Virus record (IMG/VR): IMGVR_UViG_2778261452_000004
Coordinates: 1-20,333 of that record
Source of the DNA: a virus
Lineage: Duplodnaviria; Heunggongvirae; Uroviricota; Caudoviricetes
Direction: 5' to 3' (one strand)
Length of the DNA: 20,333 nt
Under the pieces are notes generated by a model. That model was given only the letters and a program-made list of their open reading frames with translations. It was not told where the DNA came from and searched no databases. A program made the position numbers and the translations under genes. Below are positions 2,634 to 13,033 of this stretch, piece by piece. Every line of letters starts with the position of its first letter. The first letter of the stretch is position 1.

Positions 2634-3377
2634 TTATTCTTGAGTAACACTTAAACTCATCTCATTGAATGCAGCCATCCTGTAACCTGCCGGTGTAACA
2701 CCAAAATAACTCCTGAATACGCTGATAAAATAAGATGTAAAATTATAGCCACACTGAGCAGCGATTCTGTTGATGGCGCAACGAGATTGATTCAACAGCA
2801 TTGCTGCCATTCTCATTCTCTCTGTAAGCAACAACTCACTGAAACAGGTGCCTTCTTCTTTCAGTCTTTTTTTTAACAAACTTTCACTGATACATAACCG
2901 CGAAGACACATCTCTCAGAGTCCAGTTTGCTGCAATGTCCGTACGAAACAATGCACTAAGCCTGTCACTAATATTGCCAATACACGCGGTCAGAAACGAC
3001 GAAAACATTTTCTCTGATGAGAAAAACGCCAGACACGAAAAGGAAAGCATTTCCGCTAAATTGTCCGTATGAATCTTTTCCTCACAAAGATAATCAATCA
3101 GGATGCCCATCAATTCTGCCTTCGGAAAACTCACGCAAAGATATCGTGGTATTTGCCGGACTAAAACTACATCCTGTTTTTCGTCTCCACACAACAGGTA
3201 ACGGCTAATTGTCGATTCACTGAGACTTATTCGCCGAAAACATTCCGAAAAGGGCAATAACGATCCAGCTCCCCCCCTGACAAGAAGTGCACTACCACTT
3301 TCAAGAGAGAGCTCTTTTCCTTCAAAGAGCACAACAAACGGGGAATGAACAAAAACAACAGAACAGGCTTCATTCAT
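2634..3377 (-). CDS. AraC/XylS-family transcriptional regulator (prophage moron), 247 aa
   Basis: C-terminal AraC-type HTH signature (…RIAAQCGYNFTSYFISVFRSYFGVTPAGYR). Track ORF 2634..3530 trimmed to ATG at 3377, because the upstream in-frame stretch contains a terminator hairpin and an AT-rich promoter-like segment. Confidence 0.8.
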   Translation of the reverse strand: MNEACSVVFVHSPFVVLFEGKELSLESGSALLVRGGAGSLLPFSECFRRISLSESTISRYLLCGDEKQDVVLVRQIPRYLCVSFPKAELMGILIDYLCEEKIHTDNLAEMLSFSCLAFFSSEKMFSSFLTACIGNISDRLSALFRTDIAANWTLRDVSSRLCISESLLKKRLKEEGTCFSELLLTERMRMAAMLLNQSRCAINRIAAQCGYNFTSYFISVFRSYFGVTPAGYRMAAFNEMSLSVTQE

Positions 3378-3499
3378 ATCAATTGCCCTGACATTACTGG
3401 TCACAAGATAAGTATATATCGATTTACAAAAATACAAGCCGAAAGACCAGTATTCGCAACCACCAGCACGTTTTATGTTCTCTGCCGTTTTTCGGACAT

Positions 3500-3521
3500 A
3501 AAAAACCCGCTCAATGGCGGG
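3500..3521 (-). terminator. Rho-independent terminator about 85 nt downstream of the Q-like gene (candidate tR')
   Basis: Minus strand reads cccgccattgagcggg followed by tttttt (plus strand 3501-3521: aaaaa cccgc tcaatg gcggg). Confidence 0.5.
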
Positions 3522-3606
3522 TTGTATCAAAGTTCATGCGCTTGGTTCACCTCGCGATACAGCTTTGCGAAGCTTAGCAAAATTGAAGCGGTTTATGCGT
3601 AAAAAA

Positions 3607-4149
3607 TCAAGCCGTTTTTTGAGCGAATGATTCTCGCATAGGAATGTATAGCGCATACTCAGCAACGGCCAACCAATTAGCAATTCGCTTTTCGCATGTG
3701 CTAAAACACCACTCTGGGTGTGCATCATTTAGCAATTCAGCCATTTTGCGTTTGGTCATCCCCCGCCCCTCATACCGTTGACGAAGGACGCTAATCAATC
3801 CTGGATGCTCTGCCAGCACCTCACTTATGACCCGATCAATACATAACGCCTCTGCATCAGTACAATGCGCCAGCCAGCTCTTTTGCTTACCGTTAATCAT
3901 ATCCCGCAAAAAAGCCTCAAGTTCAGACTTGTTCAGACCTGCTTTTTTCATCCTCCGGAGCGCCTCGTTAATTGCCGTTTTTGTCAGCTTTTTAGAGGCC
4001 AACAACTGGTTGAACATATTCCCCGTCTTACCGCCGCCAATATACGACCAGCGCCCCCACATGCGCAGTTTTCCCTGAATCCAGACACTTTCCAGCGTGG
4101 TGAGACGAAGGTGTTCCCCGCTTTTGCCTGTATTTGTTGGGTAAATCAT
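3607..4149 (-). CDS. Putative late-gene antiterminator Q, 180 aa
   Basis: Track ORF 3607..4269 trimmed to ATG at 4149, which overlaps the upstream stop as ATGA. Call rests mainly on position (last gene before terminator and lysis genes, after YbcO-like gene) plus a weak recollection of Q-like sequence; not verified. Confidence 0.5.
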   Translation of the reverse strand: MIYPTNTGKSGEHLRLTTLESVWIQGKLRMWGRWSYIGGGKTGNMFNQLLASKKLTKTAINEALRRMKKAGLNKSELEAFLRDMINGKQKSWLAHCTDAEALCIDRVISEVLAEHPGLISVLRQRYEGRGMTKRKMAELLNDAHPEWCFSTCEKRIANWLAVAEYALYIPMRESFAQKTA

Positions 4150-4436
4150 AAATAACCTTCCTTTCTCCAGATTTCTTGCGTGCGAAAAACACCTTCTGCA
4201 TGCATCAGGCGTAATTCTTCTTTGGTGTAATCGCTTGTTTTTACCCGCCCGTCGATTAAATCGTGGCACGAGCTACAGGCAATCGCTGCCTGCATATCGT
4301 GTGGCTTTATCGCCGTTCCGCACGTTCCCGCCAGTCGGTAATGCGCCAGCACAGACGTTTCGGGATTGTGATTGCAGTAGCCAGGAATTCTGACCTGGCA
4401 CATCTGGCCCCGCGCCGCTTTACGTAAATCCACCAT
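4146..4436 (-). CDS. YbcO-like DUF1364 protein (putative Zn-binding nuclease of the nin region), 96 aa
   Basis: Sequence (…LRKAARGQMCQVRIPGYCNHNPETSVLAHYRLAG…) matches my recollection of DLP12 YbcO; Cys/His-rich; start overlaps the upstream gene stop (TAATG). Confidence 0.75.
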   Translation of the reverse strand: MVDLRKAARGQMCQVRIPGYCNHNPETSVLAHYRLAGTCGTAIKPHDMQAAIACSSCHDLIDGRVKTSDYTKEELRLMHAEGVFRTQEIWRKEGYL

Positions 4437-9149: not shown

Positions 9150-9911
9150 TCACTTTTCCGACACAATACGACTGGAGGAATCAACAATCTGTCGAACAAT
9201 ATCCCGGTGCTTATTCAGCTCCCGCAGCGCGGCGCAGACACGCTCCCACTTCTGGACATGACTTTTCGCCCGACGCAGTTCGCGGTTTGCCATATGCAGC
9301 GATGGTAAAACCAGGTCATCCGCTTGCGTTTCGGCGAACGGTGGCAACGACTGCACAATGTCCGCCACAGTTTCTGTTTTAATATCTTCCTGTGTTGCAG
9401 CTTCCTGTACTGGTAACGCAACACCTGCTGGCTGAGGAAAGGCTTTACCATCATTTTCCGTTACCGATGCAATTTTCGGCTCTGCTGGTAAATTATTGCC
9501 CGGCATGCAGTAGCGAAATTTACCATTCTGATTGACGCGAATCAGACGCCCTTTGCTGATAGCCATTGCCAGCGTTGAAGCCACTTTGCGTGATGTGGTA
9601 CCGAACCATGTAGCCAACTCATCCGCCGTTTGTGGTCCACGTTGTTCAATCGTCGCGGTTAAATCGCACTCTGAGATTTTCGCTACTGTTGCTGTGGTGG
9701 TTTCTTCCGGCAGTTCTGCCTGCGCTGGCTGTTCCTGCTGAACGTTGTTATCAGCCACACGCCAGGTGTACGCGCTTTTATCAACAAAACCAGCCTTTTT
9801 CAGTTCCCATAGTTCGTTCAGCACTTCTTCACGACTGATATCAAGTCGCGCAGCAAGTTCTATGGATGTGGCTTTTCCCATTGCTTTCAGTGCGTCAAAA
9901 ACAGTCTCCAT
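9150..9911 (-). CDS. Phage protein with two winged-helix-like segments and an acidic Q/E/P/T-rich linker (DUF1627/YdaW-like), 253 aa
   Basis: Track ORF 9150..9962 trimmed to ATG at 9911; two HTH-like segments (…[30 protein letters not shown]… and …[33 protein letters not shown]…). Confidence 0.6.
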
Positions 9912-9933
9912 TAAATTTTTCTCCCGGTAAAAA

Positions 9934-10680
9934 TTACTTCGCAATTCCTGGCTGGACGACATTCGGACGCCAGCTCTCCCAGTTAAAATTCACCCATCGC
10001 CCGCCGTTCATGGTCATGCGATCCATAATCCGCTCGCCGAGCAATGTTTTCATGGCCTCATAGTTCAGGTTTGTCAGCATCCCCACGCTGCGCATCGACG
10101 CTGTCCGGCGATCAACAATCTGGTGCAGTACCACCTGCTCGTTTTTCGTCTCGCGCTGAATGCCAATTTCATCAAGAACCAGCAGATCCACTTCGCACAG
10201 TTCCCGCAAAAATTTTTCGCCTGACTGCCCATCGTCATAGCTGGCGTGCAGGGCACTCATAACATCAGCCACGGTAACCACAATCACTGTCTGACCGTCT
10301 TTCAGCAGGCGATTCCCGATAGCTGCCGCTAAGTGGTTCTTCCCGGTACCAGGTTTTCCGCTGAACGCAAAATTTGTACACCCGGTCATCAGTTCATCAG
10401 CGATGGATTTCGCCTGACTCAACGCGTATCGCTGCGCTTCGTTCTGCACCTGGTAATTCGAAAACGAGCATTTGCGGTGCAATGGCTGGATGCCAGAGCG
10501 ATTCAGAATTTTTTCCACCCGCAACTGACGATTCTGACGGTTGATCTCCTCACAACGTTTCTGGCCTTCGGAAAGTTGCCACTCGCGCCACTCCGCTACC
10601 GTCTTGAATGGCGCGGTTACATGTGACGGGGCCAGTCTGCGGATACGTTCAAGAACGTCGCCTGTCGCAATATTTTTCAT
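9934..10680 (-). CDS. ydaV: DnaC-like helicase loader ATPase (Rac YdaV-like), 248 aa
   Basis: Walker [16 protein letters not shown] and Walker B LLVLDEIG; directly downstream of the initiator gene; length matches Rac YdaV as recalled. Confidence 0.9.
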
Positions 10681-10686
10681 GGTCAG

Positions 10687-11493
10687 TTACCCCCTGAAGC
10701 CTGGCGGGATCGCACTATCCGGTAACGAGACGGTGTTAACCTGTCGGAGTAACGTCTCAGGTCGAACACCTTTCGGCGCGAACAAGCCCTGGTATTCATT
10801 GGCGATGCTGTGTCGAATCACCTGCTCAGGTGAAAAACCCTGCTGGCGGAATTTTTCCAGCTCCCGTATCGCCCCGTTAGCGCCCTGCTCCGTTCGAATC
10901 GGTTTTCGCAATGCCTGGCGAAATTCAACCCACTCACGCCAAAGCGAGACAGAAATCCAGTTCGGCAAAGCAATATCCAGAGGGTCAAACTTTTTGACAC
11001 CTCGATTCCCCCGGGGGGGATTTAGGGGGGGATCTGTTTTTAGATCTTTATCTGTATCTTTATTAGTTGCCTTTGTGTTGACATCATGTTCAAACACCAC
11101 TTCAACATCTGTTTGAACACCTGTTAAATTTCTCTCTTGTTTTGTTTGAACATCTGTTTCCTTTCTGCTTCTTCTGGCCTGAACAGATGCTTTTCCTGCG
11201 GCTGATTTTTTGGTTAATTTTTCCCTGACTGATGCCAGATCTTCCTCAATCCGAAGATGCACCCATTCCTCGCCGTTATCGCAAAAAAACTCCTGCAAGG
11301 ATGGTTCAACATCAGCCCATCGCTCGTTAGTCAGACGGGCAATTTTTGCCAGCCTGTTTTTAGGTATTGGCTTTCCTGTTTGCCAGTAATTGAACATCAG
11401 CAACAAATACGCACCATGCTCCTCTGCTGACAAATGCATGGTGTCAGCCAGGTAATCAGCTATGTACAGTTGCATGTATGGTAATGCGGCCAT
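10687..11493 (-). CDS. ydaU: Replication initiator-like protein (DUF1376 N-terminus with DnaT-like C-terminus; Rac YdaU-like)
   Basis: Conserved N-terminus starts MAALPYMQLYIADYL… at ATG 11493 (GGGG upstream); the first ATG of the ORF is at 11544 and would give 285 aa, which may be the database start. Confidence 0.8.
   Translation of the reverse strand: MAALPYMQLYIADYLADTMHLSAEEHGAYLLLMFNYWQTGKPIPKNRLAKIARLTNERWADVEPSLQEFFCDNGEEWVHLRIEEDLASVREKLTKKSAAGKASVQARRSRKETDVQTKQERNLTGVQTDVEVVFEHDVNTKATNKDTDKDLKTDPPLNPPRGNRGVKKFDPLDIALPNWISVSLWREWVEFRQALRKPIRTEQGANGAIRELEKFRQQGFSPEQVIRHSIANEYQGLFAPKGVRPETLLRQVNTVSLPDSAIPPGFRG
11087..11156. repeat. Iteron-like repeats inside the initiator gene: three copies of TGTTTGAACA / TGTTCAAACA; candidate ori
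   Basis: Seen directly: tgttcaaaca at 11089-11098 and its reverse complement tgtttgaaca at 11110-11119 and 11143-11152; flanked by an AT-rich stretch (11041-11075). Confidence 0.35.
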
Positions 11494-11556
11494 AATTGCC
11501 CCGTATGATGCTGCCCGGTGGCTTAGAATAAGCACAAACAGCATGGAAACTTTTGC

Positions 11557-11979
11557 TTAATGAACAATGACAGAATCGTCGGAAGAACCGCCGCCGCTGA
11601 AATGCGCTTTCCGGTAAACGGCCTGGACTGCATCATCATGCGCATCAATTGCCGTACTTAACGCTTCCTGCGCCGCCAGTAATGCACGGCGTTCCAGGGT
11701 ATCGAAGATGCAGAGTCGGTGACGCAACTCGCGCGGAAGGATTGCCAGAATTGCTGGGATCAGCTTCTGAATTTTTTCTCTTTGCGTTTTCGTTTCACCT
11801 TTCAACCAACGGTGATAGATATTCTGCTGATTGTTCCAGTCCTTGCCTGGAACCAGGGGCAATTCGCCGCCCCCCTGGCGCAGATATTCTTCAGTAATTG
11901 CATTGGCTACCCATGCCTGCCCTTTTTCGGCTGCCAGGGCAAACAACACTGATTCGATGTGCTCATGCTTGATTTTCAT
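11557..11979 (-). CDS. ydaT: YdaT-like protein (Rac), 140 aa
   Basis: Complete 140-aa track ORF directly downstream of the Cro-like ydaS; length and sequence match Rac YdaT as recalled. Confidence 0.8.
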   Translation of the reverse strand: MKIKHEHIESVLFALAAEKGQAWVANAITEEYLRQGGGELPLVPGKDWNNQQNIYHRWLKGETKTQREKIQKLIPAILAILPRELRHRLCIFDTLERRALLAAQEALSTAIDAHDDAVQAVYRKAHFSGGGSSDDSVIVH

Positions 11980-12001
11980 GAATCATTTGCCTCTTGATGT
12001 T

Positions 12002-12298
12002 TCAGGTATGATCAAATGAGGATTTGTTACTGTCATTTAGTTGCTTCACTGACATATTCTGCGAACAACATGCCGAACGTCGTAAATATGACCAGTCAAT
12101 ATCAGGACGAAGCTCTTCGCACAGAACCTCACCTCTTGTTGCTCGTTCAATTGCTGGACATCTCTCGGCAGGCAATTGACGTACCCCTTTGATCCATTGA
12201 TTTACGCTTGGAGGTGATACACCTAAAAGCCTAGCCATTGCTGATTGCCCACCGACAACAGCACAAGCTTGCTTGAATGAATAGTTCTCTTTTTTCAT
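12002..12298 (-). CDS. ydaS: YdaS-like Cro-type HTH regulator, 98 aa
   Basis: HTH segment QACAVVGGQSAMARLLGVSPPSVNQWIKG; divergent from the repressor gene across an operator-bearing intergenic region. Confidence 0.85.
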   Translation of the reverse strand: MKKENYSFKQACAVVGGQSAMARLLGVSPPSVNQWIKGVRQLPAERCPAIERATRGEVLCEELRPDIDWSYLRRSACCSQNMSVKQLNDSNKSSFDHT

Positions 12299-12327
12299 CG
12301 AATGAACTCCAAAAACACACAGAAATA

Positions 12328-12393
12328 TTAGGCGACGCCTAACATAAATGTCAATAGGCTATGCCTAATGCGATAAAGGTAGGGATTGCCTAA
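12328..12393. promoter_or_regulatory. OR-like operator cluster between racR and ydaS (three TTAGGC-N3-GCCTAA-type palindromes)
   Basis: Seen directly: ttaggcgacgcctaa (12328-12342, perfect 15-bp palindrome); ataggctatgcctaa (12354-12368); weaker gtagggattgcctaa (12379-12393); centres about 25 bp apart. Confidence 0.5.
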
Positions 12394-12421
12394 TACAATG
12401 AGCATAGGAGAATATTAAGCA

Positions 12422-12898
12422 ATGCTTAGTGGTAAAGACTTAGGCCGAGCGATAGAGCAGGCCATTAACAAAAAAATCGCATCGGGATCCGTCAAATCAA
12501 AGGCGGAGGTCGCACGCCACTTCAAAATCCAACCACCATCAATTTATGACTGGATTAAGAAAGGCTCCATAAGTAAAGATAAACTTCCAGAATTATGGCG
12601 TTTCTTTTCTGATGTTGTTGGTCCAGAGCATTGGGGGCTTAACGAATACCCCATACCAACCCCCACCAATTCAGATACAAAAAGTGAACTTTTAGATATA
12701 AACAACCTTTATCAAGCAGCCTCTGATGAAATAAGAGCGATTGTAGCTTTCCTGTTATCTGGAAATGCTACAGAACCAGATTGGGTTGACCACGATGTTC
12801 GCGCCTACATAGCAGCGATGGAAATGAAAGTGGGTAAGTATCTGAAAGCTCTAGAATCTGAACGGAAAAGCCAGAACATCACAAAAACTGGAACTTAA
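12422..12898 (+). CDS. racR: Prophage repressor RacR-like (HTH, no peptidase domain), 158 aa
   Basis: N-terminal HTH; divergent to the Cro-like gene; operator clusters on both sides; length equals Rac RacR as recalled. Confidence 0.85.
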   Translation: MLSGKDLGRAIEQAINKKIASGSVKSKAEVARHFKIQPPSIYDWIKKGSISKDKLPELWRFFSDVVGPEHWGLNEYPIPTPTNSDTKSELLDINNLYQAASDEIRAIVAFLLSGNATEPDWVDHDVRAYIAAMEMKVGKYLKALESERKSQNITKTGT

Positions 12899-12912
12899 AC
12901 TTATATGGTCTG

Positions 12913-12940
12913 ACGGAAAACTCCTGGATTCCGTTATTTA
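12913..12940 (+). terminator. Possible terminator after racR
   Basis: acggaa-(10-nt loop)-ttccgt followed by tattta; loop is long, so the call is weak. Confidence 0.3.
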
Positions 12941-12974
12941 ACCCCCCATCACTTTCTCCTGTCGCCATCACCTA

Positions 12975-13033
12975 TTAGGTTACGCCCAAAACATTAGGCA
13001 TAGCCTATTGACAATCAATTAGGCATTACCTAT
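12975..13033. promoter_or_regulatory. OL-like operator cluster downstream of racR, upstream of ydaG/ydaF
   Basis: Seen directly: ttaggttacgcccaa (12975-12989), ttaggcatagcctat (12994-13008), ttaggcattacctat (13019-13033); same half-site as the OR-like cluster. Confidence 0.45.

Follow-up and report, generated by a model that had tools for sequence, protein, structure and literature searches.

Where in the cryptic prophage Rac of E. coli does DNA replication start? The question is raised by a stretch of 20,333 nucleotides (nt), positions 1 to 20,333 of the IMG/VR record IMGVR_UViG_2778261452_000004 and called the window below, which corresponds to the lambdoid prophage Rac in an orientation reversed relative to MG1655 and in which short repeats are clustered inside the gene ydaU. 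The initial annotation had proposed an origin of replication within this initiator gene, placed as it is in phage lambda. The presented results support this proposal through a set of sequence-level predictions, namely the position of the repeats, the order of repeats and A+T-rich tract, their conservation, their linkage to the N-terminal domain of the encoded protein and the presence of a helicase loader gene. They suggest, with a probability of about three in four, that a lambda-type replication origin of the Rac-type prophage lies inside ydaU and that three identical 10-mers are its best-preserved sites. The features on which this reading is built are the following.

10687-11544, minus strand: ydaU, 285 amino acids (aa), with an N-terminal DUF1376 domain, a linker and a C-terminal domain common to 'replication protein O' proteins
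11065-11155: candidate iteron array, eight units phased at 11-12 base pairs (bp), gene nt 390-480 of 858
11143-11152: site A, exact TGTTTGAACA, gene nt 393-402
11110-11119: site B, exact TGTTTGAACA, gene nt 426-435
11100-11107: site C, degenerate, gene strand TGTTGAAG, 11 bp from site B and 12 bp from site D
11087-11096: site D, exact in the other orientation, plus strand TGTTCAAACA, gene nt 449-458
11076-11083: site E, degenerate, gene strand TGTCAACA, 12 bp from site D
11031-11064: A+T-rich tract of 34 bp, gene strand AATAAAGATACAGATAAAGATCTAAAAACAGATC, gene nt 481-514, abutting the array
11008-11031: C7-TAAAT-C7-G5 element, bordering the tract and coding for PLNPPRG at the start of the C-terminal domain

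The 10-mer TGTTTGAACA is present in exactly three copies, all of them within 66 bp and none elsewhere in the 20.3-kb window. The three occurrences within about 65 bp, one of them inverted, which the initial annotation had described, were thus recovered as exact matches; only the first copy, placed there at 11089-11098, had to be shifted by 2 nt to 11087-11096. The 10-mer is a near-palindrome, TGTT-YR-AACA, in which nothing but the central dinucleotide distinguishes direct from 'inverted' copies, and the degenerate form TGTTYRAACA has three matches against 0.14 expected from shuffles. Together with about five degenerate copies, the three exact ones form units that can be read as AACANNTGTT or as TGTT-YR-AACA palindromes, and the centres of the sites are separated by 33, 11, 12 and 12 bp, distances close to one turn of the helix or to a multiple of it. 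Read along the gene strand, the array gives the xAAC series CAAAC / (degenerate) / TAAC / CAAAC / GAAG / GAAC / CAAC / CAAC, and the last unit, which follows site E, is GCAACT at 11065-11070, the counterpart of an invariant CCAACT in relatives. The whole anatomy of this strand can be written as GATGTTCAAACA-(21 nt)-GGTGTTCAAACA GATGTTGAAGTG GTGTTTGAACAT GATGTCAACACAAAGGCAACT | AATAAAGATACAGATAAAGATCTAAAAACAGATC | CCCCCCTAAATCCCCCCCGGGGG. The array occupies the centre of ydaU, between the DUF1376 domain (aa 22-104) and the O-like C-terminal domain (aa 173-285), which is the linker-coding place to which the repeats had been assigned at the outset.

The tract that follows the array is 76% A+T and, on the plus strand, 71% pyrimidine. 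It shows a 6-bp periodicity, contains two GATC sites and can be described as a degenerate (GATACA)n sequence with GAT every 6 nt and two mismatches to (GATACA)3. The adjoining AT-rich stretch with repeated atcttta, also noticed in the first reading of the sequence, is confirmed by a GC content of 0.33-0.37 over 11020-11170 and by ATCTTTA at 11044-11050 and 11056-11062, both belonging to a 6-bp-phased ATCT series at 11032, 11044, 11050 and 11056. Moreover, no 40-mer of the module 9934-12298 (ydaV-ydaS) is less stable than the tract, which falls within the least stable 0.9% of the window and belongs to the least variable parts of ydaU, with one variable site in gene nt 481-510 among 46 distinct close relatives. 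It is considered a candidate DNA-unwinding and helicase-entry element. The C7-TAAAT-C7-G5 element at its border could also be a feature that acts at the DNA level, as a GC clamp or a hairpin; in lambda, a palindrome lies to the right of the A+T-rich region, in a comparable position. Similar elements, consisting of two C-runs and a G-run, come after the tract in the distant relatives L103, L124, L132, L146 and L157 and in many viral loci.

Variation within the species was followed in the close relatives, for which a whole-protein search of IMG/VR, returning only near-identical E. coli copies, was used. Site A is the only exact site that varies among them, apart from site B, which has no variable position in the 46 distinct close relatives and differs in 1 of 17 variants of a separately anchored set. 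Site D is kept in the related prophage Rac-SA53 (L083 2550-2559). The window itself carries a rare allele at 11157, T on the plus strand, which gives Thr in ...KETDVQT; this position is C (Ala) in 44 of the 46 distinct close relatives, and the base of the window is found in only 1 of 65 anchored IMG/VR loci. The change creates a third copy of ATCTGTTT (11152-11159) beside site A. The inverted sites 11086-11096 / 11143-11153 and 11087-11096 / 11110-11119 might also form single-strand stems of 10-11 nt, and an equivalent inverted pair, of 9 nt and with a separation again of 13 nt, is found in the homologue from a Pseudomonas phage (L082 2873-2903). Single-strand folding of 11031-11160 gave z-scores of only -2.4 and -2.3, for which the inverted sites themselves account.

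In a family-wide comparison, one genome per species was scanned, which yielded 80 loci with DUF1376 relatives of 38-100% identity, and in 71 non-redundant loci of about 5.3 kb each every 100-nt segment was scored for repeated 7-mers on either strand. The segment directly after the DUF1376 domain was the most repeat-dense of the locus in 34 of the 71 and fell within the top 5% in 52, and the locus-wide best segment lay within -50 to +200 nt of the anchor in 36 loci, against about 3.5 expected. The comparison with related initiators proposed in the initial annotation thus found the repeats in these genes as well. Enterobacterial and Pseudomonas relatives carry AACGNNCGTT/CGTTSAACG units, and in the enterobacterial arrays AAC is invariant at alignment columns 28, 39, 50, (61), 72, 83 and 94, which is a period of exactly 11 bp and does not coincide with the codon phase. 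The Rac array is homologous, position by position, to this exact 11-bp array; it aligns unit by unit with 30 other loci of the same layout, in which the array ends with CAAC before a (GATACA)n-like tract, and the repeats are retained in relatives with as little as about 45% protein identity. At this place, other lineages carry different motifs, including AGCAATGCT in several alpha-proteobacteria, GCGAACGC, CTGCGGACGCA and, in locus L145, a 12-mer in 11 copies.

In 30 of 78 distinct loci, among them loci from hosts with 58-66% GC, the array is followed by a (GATACA)3-like sequence with at most two mismatches; such a sequence is found elsewhere, on either strand, in only four of the same loci. 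Further lineages have other strand-asymmetric simple repeats in the place of the tract, such as (GAAGA)n with a period of 5, CACAAC/CACAAT, CAGGAA, CAGAAC and AACCAT.

The coding properties of these segments were also informative. Since the period is 11 bp, the repeats cannot be an effect of codons, and in the Pseudomonas phage UFJF_PfDIW6 five 11-bp units (AACGACCGTTC / AACGACCGTTG / ...) code for a non-repetitive peptide. Pairwise identity at the first, second and third codon positions was 0.89/0.93/0.59 for the domain, 0.77/0.84/0.65 for the array and 0.87/0.85/1.00 for the tract, which means that third positions are less relaxed than usual in the array and not relaxed at all in the tract. 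In the tracts, Asp is encoded by GAT rather than GAC in a ratio of 112:1 and Thr by ACA rather than other codons in a ratio of 86:1, against 169:242 and 70:340 in the rest of the same genes, a contrast that holds even in hosts with 58-66% GC; this codon test is, however, partly circular, because the tracts were picked by their similarity to GATACA, and to that extent it counts against the interpretation drawn from it. The alignments show that the constraint on array and tract acts on the DNA and not on the peptide. The DNA-level selection suggested in the initial annotation is borne out, as 11 bp is not divisible by three and different lineages have different motifs.

Several loci of this comparison deserve separate mention. 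In L145, a Microbacteriaceae metagenome-assembled genome (MAG), at about 590-760, the open reading frame (ORF) with DUF1376 stops three codons past the domain, and at least 11 tandem copies of the 12-mer GCAAAAGCTATG, followed by CCACCACCACCACC, lie outside the coding sequence. In Citrobacter murliniae (L092, about 2860-2920), the ydaU-like gene is frameshifted, its ORF ending at 2920, and the array and GATACA tract are intact. The loci L109, L111, L112, L114 and L116 (about 2800-3100) encode an extra domain after DUF1376 (GYVYFI...IGYSKNPW), which we take to be T5orf172/MUG113-like; in the L109-L116 subfamily the DNA of this extra domain holds clustered CCGTAG(N)AGCTACG repeats instead of the CAACG array, with six GTAGCTA in L111.

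The type of repeat follows the N-terminal part of the initiator. Rac-SA53 shares the N-terminal domain with Rac (96% DNA identity over the shared half), has a different C-terminal domain and a different downstream gene or loader, and keeps the TGTTCAAACA/TGTTTGAACA pair with its 13-nt separation unchanged. The phage vB_EcoS-673R7 and the Rac prophage of strain 442/2 represent the opposite combination: they share the C-terminal domain with Rac (86% identity), and their N-terminal domain is unrelated. Here, three GTAACGCTG/CAGCGTTAC sites occupy the position that corresponds to the Rac array and are followed by a tract rich in purines and in A+T; the sequence becomes that of Rac again at CCCCCTAAATCCCCC. 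It follows from this comparison that the repeats travel with the N-terminal domain, which is also the established behaviour of iterons in lambdoid O genes.

The same layout was approached from the other side by searching IMG/VR for exact (GATACA)4 without any protein information. At least 120 loci were found, and the counts given here refer to the loci listed. In 110 of the 120, the tract lay in a long ORF (median 280 aa) at a median relative position of 0.51, and in all of these ORFs it was read in the Asp-Thr frame. DUF1376 was present in only 14-16 of the tract-containing ORFs. According to PHROG, the ORFs are overwhelmingly initiators of replication; the matches of 103 ORFs included phrog_3926 'replication initiation protein' (51), phrog_10469 'DnaD-like' (50), phrog_6451 'primosomal' (31) and the 'O-like' family (26), and the Pfam matches included Phage_rep_org_N, DUF6291 and DnaT domains. 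In 56% of 102 loci, the 100 nt before the tract ranked among the 5% of segments richest in repeats within the locus, and identical 5-mers in this region were spaced preferentially by 11 bp (293 pairs), then by 22 bp (106) and 33 bp (154). Clusters of N-terminal domains had motifs of their own, namely the GTAACG/GTGACG/CGAACGC types, CAACG, AAACCCA and CGAAGCA. The layout recurs with four or more unrelated families of initiator N-terminal domains, and those found with array and (GATACA)n include DUF1376, DnaD-like/phrog_3926, Phage_rep_org_N, DUF6291 and others.

Some of the (GATACA)4 matches are unrelated to initiators, such as L184, L198 and L239 on giant-virus MAG contigs and the AT-rich L183, L185 and L279; these off-target loci are long acidic low-complexity ORFs or non-coding AT-rich DNA. 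Because of such matches outside initiator genes, the tract alone is not fully specific. On the basis of these sequence comparisons, the Rac layout is an instance of a far more general arrangement of array and tract. A bolder proposal, to which we would give somewhat less than even odds, is that the 11-bp array with (GATACA)n forms a widely shared origin core, used by several unrelated N-terminal families in hosts from Enterobacteria to Planctomycetes, with GATACA as a sequence-specific functional element and not a mere AT-rich spacer or linker of Asp and Thr. The GATACA repeat could be an entry site for the helicase or its loader, or an array of priming sites. CTG is the trinucleotide of E. 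coli DnaG, and, speculatively, the complement (TGTATC)n would present it every 6 nt.

The properties of the YdaU protein and its neighbour are in line with a role in initiation. The coding features concerned are the following.

11233-11481, minus strand: coding region of the DUF1376 domain (Pfam E=2.7e-26, aa 22-104), presumed origin-binding and winged-helix-like
9934-10680, minus strand: ydaV, a DnaC/IstB-type AAA+ helicase-loader gene directly downstream of ydaU
12325-12354, minus strand: sigma-70-like promoter candidate upstream of ydaS, with TTGACA, an 18-nt spacer and a TATTAT-type -10 (10/12 matches)

YdaU matches PHROG 6451 'primosomal protein' (E=1e-123) and phrog_678 'replication initiation O-like' (E=6e-25), and a tblastn search of the phage collection splits it into two halves. 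The residues 173-285 match the C-termini of annotated 'replication protein O' sequences (SPN3UB PrpO, mEpX1, phiES15 and Pm86), and the residues 18-140 match DUF1376 proteins from phages of Pseudomonas, Bordetella, Acinetobacter, Vibrio, Moraxella and rhizobia. The model that AlphaFold2 gave for aa 18-125 (predicted local distance difference test score, pLDDT, of 87.4) consists of helix-helix-helix and a beta-hairpin, then a long helix. The best folds returned by Foldseek from the PDB are the winged-helix DNA-binding proteins MepR/MarR, the N-terminal domain of Rio2 and SmtB, with E of about 0.04; no match at E<=0.001 was obtained for this domain in the PDB fold search. The winged-helix-like model agrees with DNA binding and is no proof of it.

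No Pfam domain was found in the C-terminal 125 aa of YdaU or in the linker. The residues 210-285 (window 10687-10915) show weak similarity to the C-terminal domain of DnaT (PDB 2ru8, E=0.0028; 9zbt, E=0.011), and Pfam DnaT is present in 8 of the 103 listed tract-containing viral ORFs, including the DUF1376 protein L168. The DnaT similarity raises the idea that the C-terminal domain of YdaU contacts the unwound tract. YdaV, in turn, matches Pfam IstB_IS21 and Bac_DnaA, NCBIfam PRK12377 (E=4e-152) and the DnaC equivalog (E=1e-91), and belongs to PHROG 50 'DnaC-like helicase loader'. In 68 relatives, the next gene was lambda-P-like in 11, DnaC/IstB-like in 11, DnaB-like in 3 and primase-like in 3, and a co-variation between the C-terminal domain of YdaU and a DnaC-type loader was not detectable by tblastn at E<1e-5.

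These elements may be assembled into a mechanism. YdaU would bind about eight short dyad sites (AACANNTGTT / TGTTYRAACA) in 11065-11155 through its N-terminal DUF1376 domain, and sites placed one helical turn (11-12 bp) apart would lie on one face of the DNA. The resulting nucleoprotein array may destabilise the adjoining 34-bp strand-asymmetric tract at 11031-11064, and the C-terminal domain would recruit DnaB of the host by way of YdaV, the DnaC-like loader. Transcription running rightward from the promoter candidate upstream of ydaS, a call based on a consensus scan only, would cross ydaS, ydaT and ydaU like that from lambda pR and would thus pass over the origin, as it does in lambda. Binding by YdaU, unwinding of the tract, recruitment of the loader and firing at this site are steps that we only infer.

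Comparison with known origins places the ydaU arrangement closest to lambda. In the lambda O gene, four iterons occupy gene nt 349-433 of 900, then comes a tract whose sense strand is rich in A, and gene P lies behind O. The same order and orientation are seen in ydaU, with the array at nt 390-480 of its 858 nt, then the A-rich, easily melted tract at nt 481-514 and finally the loader gene. In both cases, the origin or candidate origin lies in the linker-coding part between a DNA-binding N-terminal domain and a loader-binding C-terminal domain, both roles being presumed for YdaU, the sites are dyad-symmetric, the unit is placed downstream of cro/cII-type early genes and the type of site follows the N-terminal domain. 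The differences concern the N-terminal domain, which is DUF1376 and not that of lambda O, the loader, which is DnaC-like and not lambda P, and the tract, which in Rac is a 6-bp-periodic repeat of the GATACA type. Origins related to ori-lambda exist in other lambdoid phages. Initiator sites inside their own coding sequence and beside an AT-rich region are also a property of SPP1 oriL, located within gene 38; its protein families, repeat sequences and spacing differ from those of Rac.

In bacterial oriC, as Richardson and colleagues reportedly described in 2016, DnaA boxes are followed by 3-nt-periodic DnaA-trios and an AT-rich DNA unwinding element. The ydaU layout resembles this basal unwinding system in that double-strand initiator sites abut a tract of short-period repeats at which opening would begin. 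The differences are that GATACA departs from the consensus of the trios, that the repeats have a period of 6 instead of 3 and that the tract lies inside a gene. An origin with DnaA boxes was considered and rejected, as TTWTNCACA with at most one mismatch has 57 matches in the window against 49.7 expected and none in 11000-11200. The oriC 13-mers GATCTNTTNTTTT are likewise not enriched (15 matches against 12 expected), despite the look of the tract; one of the matches with two mismatches falls in the tract (11031-11043) and one in the array (11131-11143). Plasmid iterons, which are direct repeats of 17-22 bp bound by Rep, share with the Rac array the presence of multiple phased sites beside an AT-rich region. 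They were also rejected as a model, since the Rac units are 10-12 bp long, about half that length, dyad-symmetric, one helical turn apart and intragenic. The longest direct repeat has 14 nt and two copies. No Rfam match at E<=1 was found in 9500-13000, and no promoter-like or terminator-like site was found within the array or tract (11031-11155).

Several observations speak against an origin in ydaU and have to be set beside those listed above. Within E. coli, the array is no less variable than the remainder of ydaU, with nine variable sites, mostly singletons, in gene nt 391-420 of the 46 close relatives. Three Rac units are 12 bp apart and hence in frame, and Rac alone cannot separate repetition at the DNA level from repetition at the peptide level. 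The assignment of DUF1376 to a DNA-binding fold is weak, and no clean covariation was seen between DUF1376 residues and CGTT or TGTT half-sites, with three TGTT lineages available. The geometry also departs from that of lambda, in which four iterons of 18-19 bp are 20-24 bp apart, whereas in Rac about eight sites of about 10 bp are separated by 11-12 bp.

Other difficulties of this kind come from the literature on oriJ. The oriJ origin of Rac is said to go back to the work of Diaz and co-workers in 1979 and of Potrykus and co-workers in 2000. Rac has been described as having an active origin, oriJ (PMC3945230), and plasmids with oriJ are those of Potrykus et al. 2000, as cited in PMC11014345. 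In the latter source, the function of ydaUVW is regarded as undetermined and K-12 Rac is termed 'replication-defective' after excision, yet a transient peak of Rac copies is reported (PMC11014345); the 'defective replication' of Rac is repeated in a 2026 preprint. No nucleotide position or experimental mapping of oriJ was found in the literature searched, and no origin is annotated in Rac by RefSeq. Primers are said to frame oriJ in supplementary file 4 of PMC3945230, and in the window they give an amplicon of 155 bp at 10269-10423, inside ydaV and about 0.7 kb from the array. This amplicon has an ordinary GC content of 0.48-0.57, no clustered repeats and no origin-like features. We read it as a nearby proxy for copy number, and the discrepancy with the position of the array remains; the ydaU array is probably oriJ, as judged from the features described above.

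The position of these primers is also the main argument for the alternative that survives best, according to which array and tract are cis-acting protein-binding DNA and not an origin, serving as an autoregulatory site or roadblock for ydaU and ydaV or as sites for host factors, with oriJ elsewhere, for example in ydaV. It gains from the fact that the ydaU array as the bound and firing site is itself something we only infer. We consider this alternative unlikely, as the ydaV amplicon is ordinary coding sequence without clustered repeats, an array with an AT-rich tract in the middle of an initiator gene is the classical layout of an origin, the array and tract contain nothing that resembles a promoter or terminator, and a regulator specific to one operon would not explain the recurrence with four or more unrelated N-terminal families.

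A second and still less probable alternative is that the (GATACA)n tract, possibly with the flanking repeats, is a shared recombination 'linker' through which N- and C-terminal modules of initiators are shuffled, without a direct role in initiation. The mosaic junctions are compatible with this idea, since Rac and 673R7 or 442/2 are shared only from CCCCCTAAATCCCCC on and Rac and Rac-SA53 only to about the tract, and so is the presence of the same hexamer repeat in unrelated initiator families. It leaves unexplained, however, why family-specific, helically phased arrays abut the tract and why GATACA is replaced elsewhere by GAAGA, CACAAC, CAGGAA or CAGAAC. Recombination at lambdoid ori regions is well known; it is equally expected at a functional origin, and the roles of linker and origin can coexist. 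Finally, that the repeats are a mere by-product of a slippage-prone low-complexity linker (GVQT/DVEV/VFEH/DVNT and an Asp-Thr-rich spacer) with no function at the DNA level is very improbable, for although the three Rac units with 12-bp spacing give 4-aa peptide repeats, the Asp-Thr frame is used in 110 of the 120 viral loci listed and the linker has no Pfam domain, the homologous 11-bp arrays give no peptide repeats, third codon positions are not relaxed in array or tract, the choice of codons is strongly one-sided (GAT 112:1, ACA 86:1) and runs counter to the bias of the host, inverted copies cannot come from slippage and the motif co-varies with the N-terminal domain.

If an origin inside ydaU is accepted, the origin of Rac, known genetically since the 1970s, would receive a position at the nucleotide level, at about 1,421,508-1,421,632 of MG1655 as calculated from the window coordinates. 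Two uncharacterised K-12 genes would obtain a role, ydaU as initiator and ydaV as loader, DUF1376 would be suggested as an origin-binding domain, and the result would bear on the replication of excised Rac, which is treated inconsistently in current papers. The finding for Rac is possibly already known, if the older oriJ papers mapped ydaU. The general architecture of array and GATACA repeat may be undescribed so far, as no description of it was found in the open-access literature searched. The wider regularity of array and (GATACA)n in several initiator families is a more interesting lead than Rac itself, as short repeats phased at 11 bp and followed, in mid-gene, by (GATACA)n or another strand-asymmetric simple repeat could mark initiators and origins in thousands of phage and prophage sequences.

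The order of genes in the window, racR / ydaS-ydaT-ydaU-ydaV-ydaW, matches that of Rac in MG1655. The ydaU gene is 99.9% identical to copies in many E. coli genomes, with a match in 1506 of 5426 complete genomes, and the phage genome record vB_EcoS-683R6 carries the same allele (99.7% identical). In two loci, E. coli ECMA0423 (L089) and Shigella flexneri SFBU1023 (L090), an insertion of 1.33 kb (about 2912-4245) breaks ydaU inside the array after ...GAACATGATG. It parts the sites from the tract and truncates the initiator, and its end resembles the terminal sequence of IS2.

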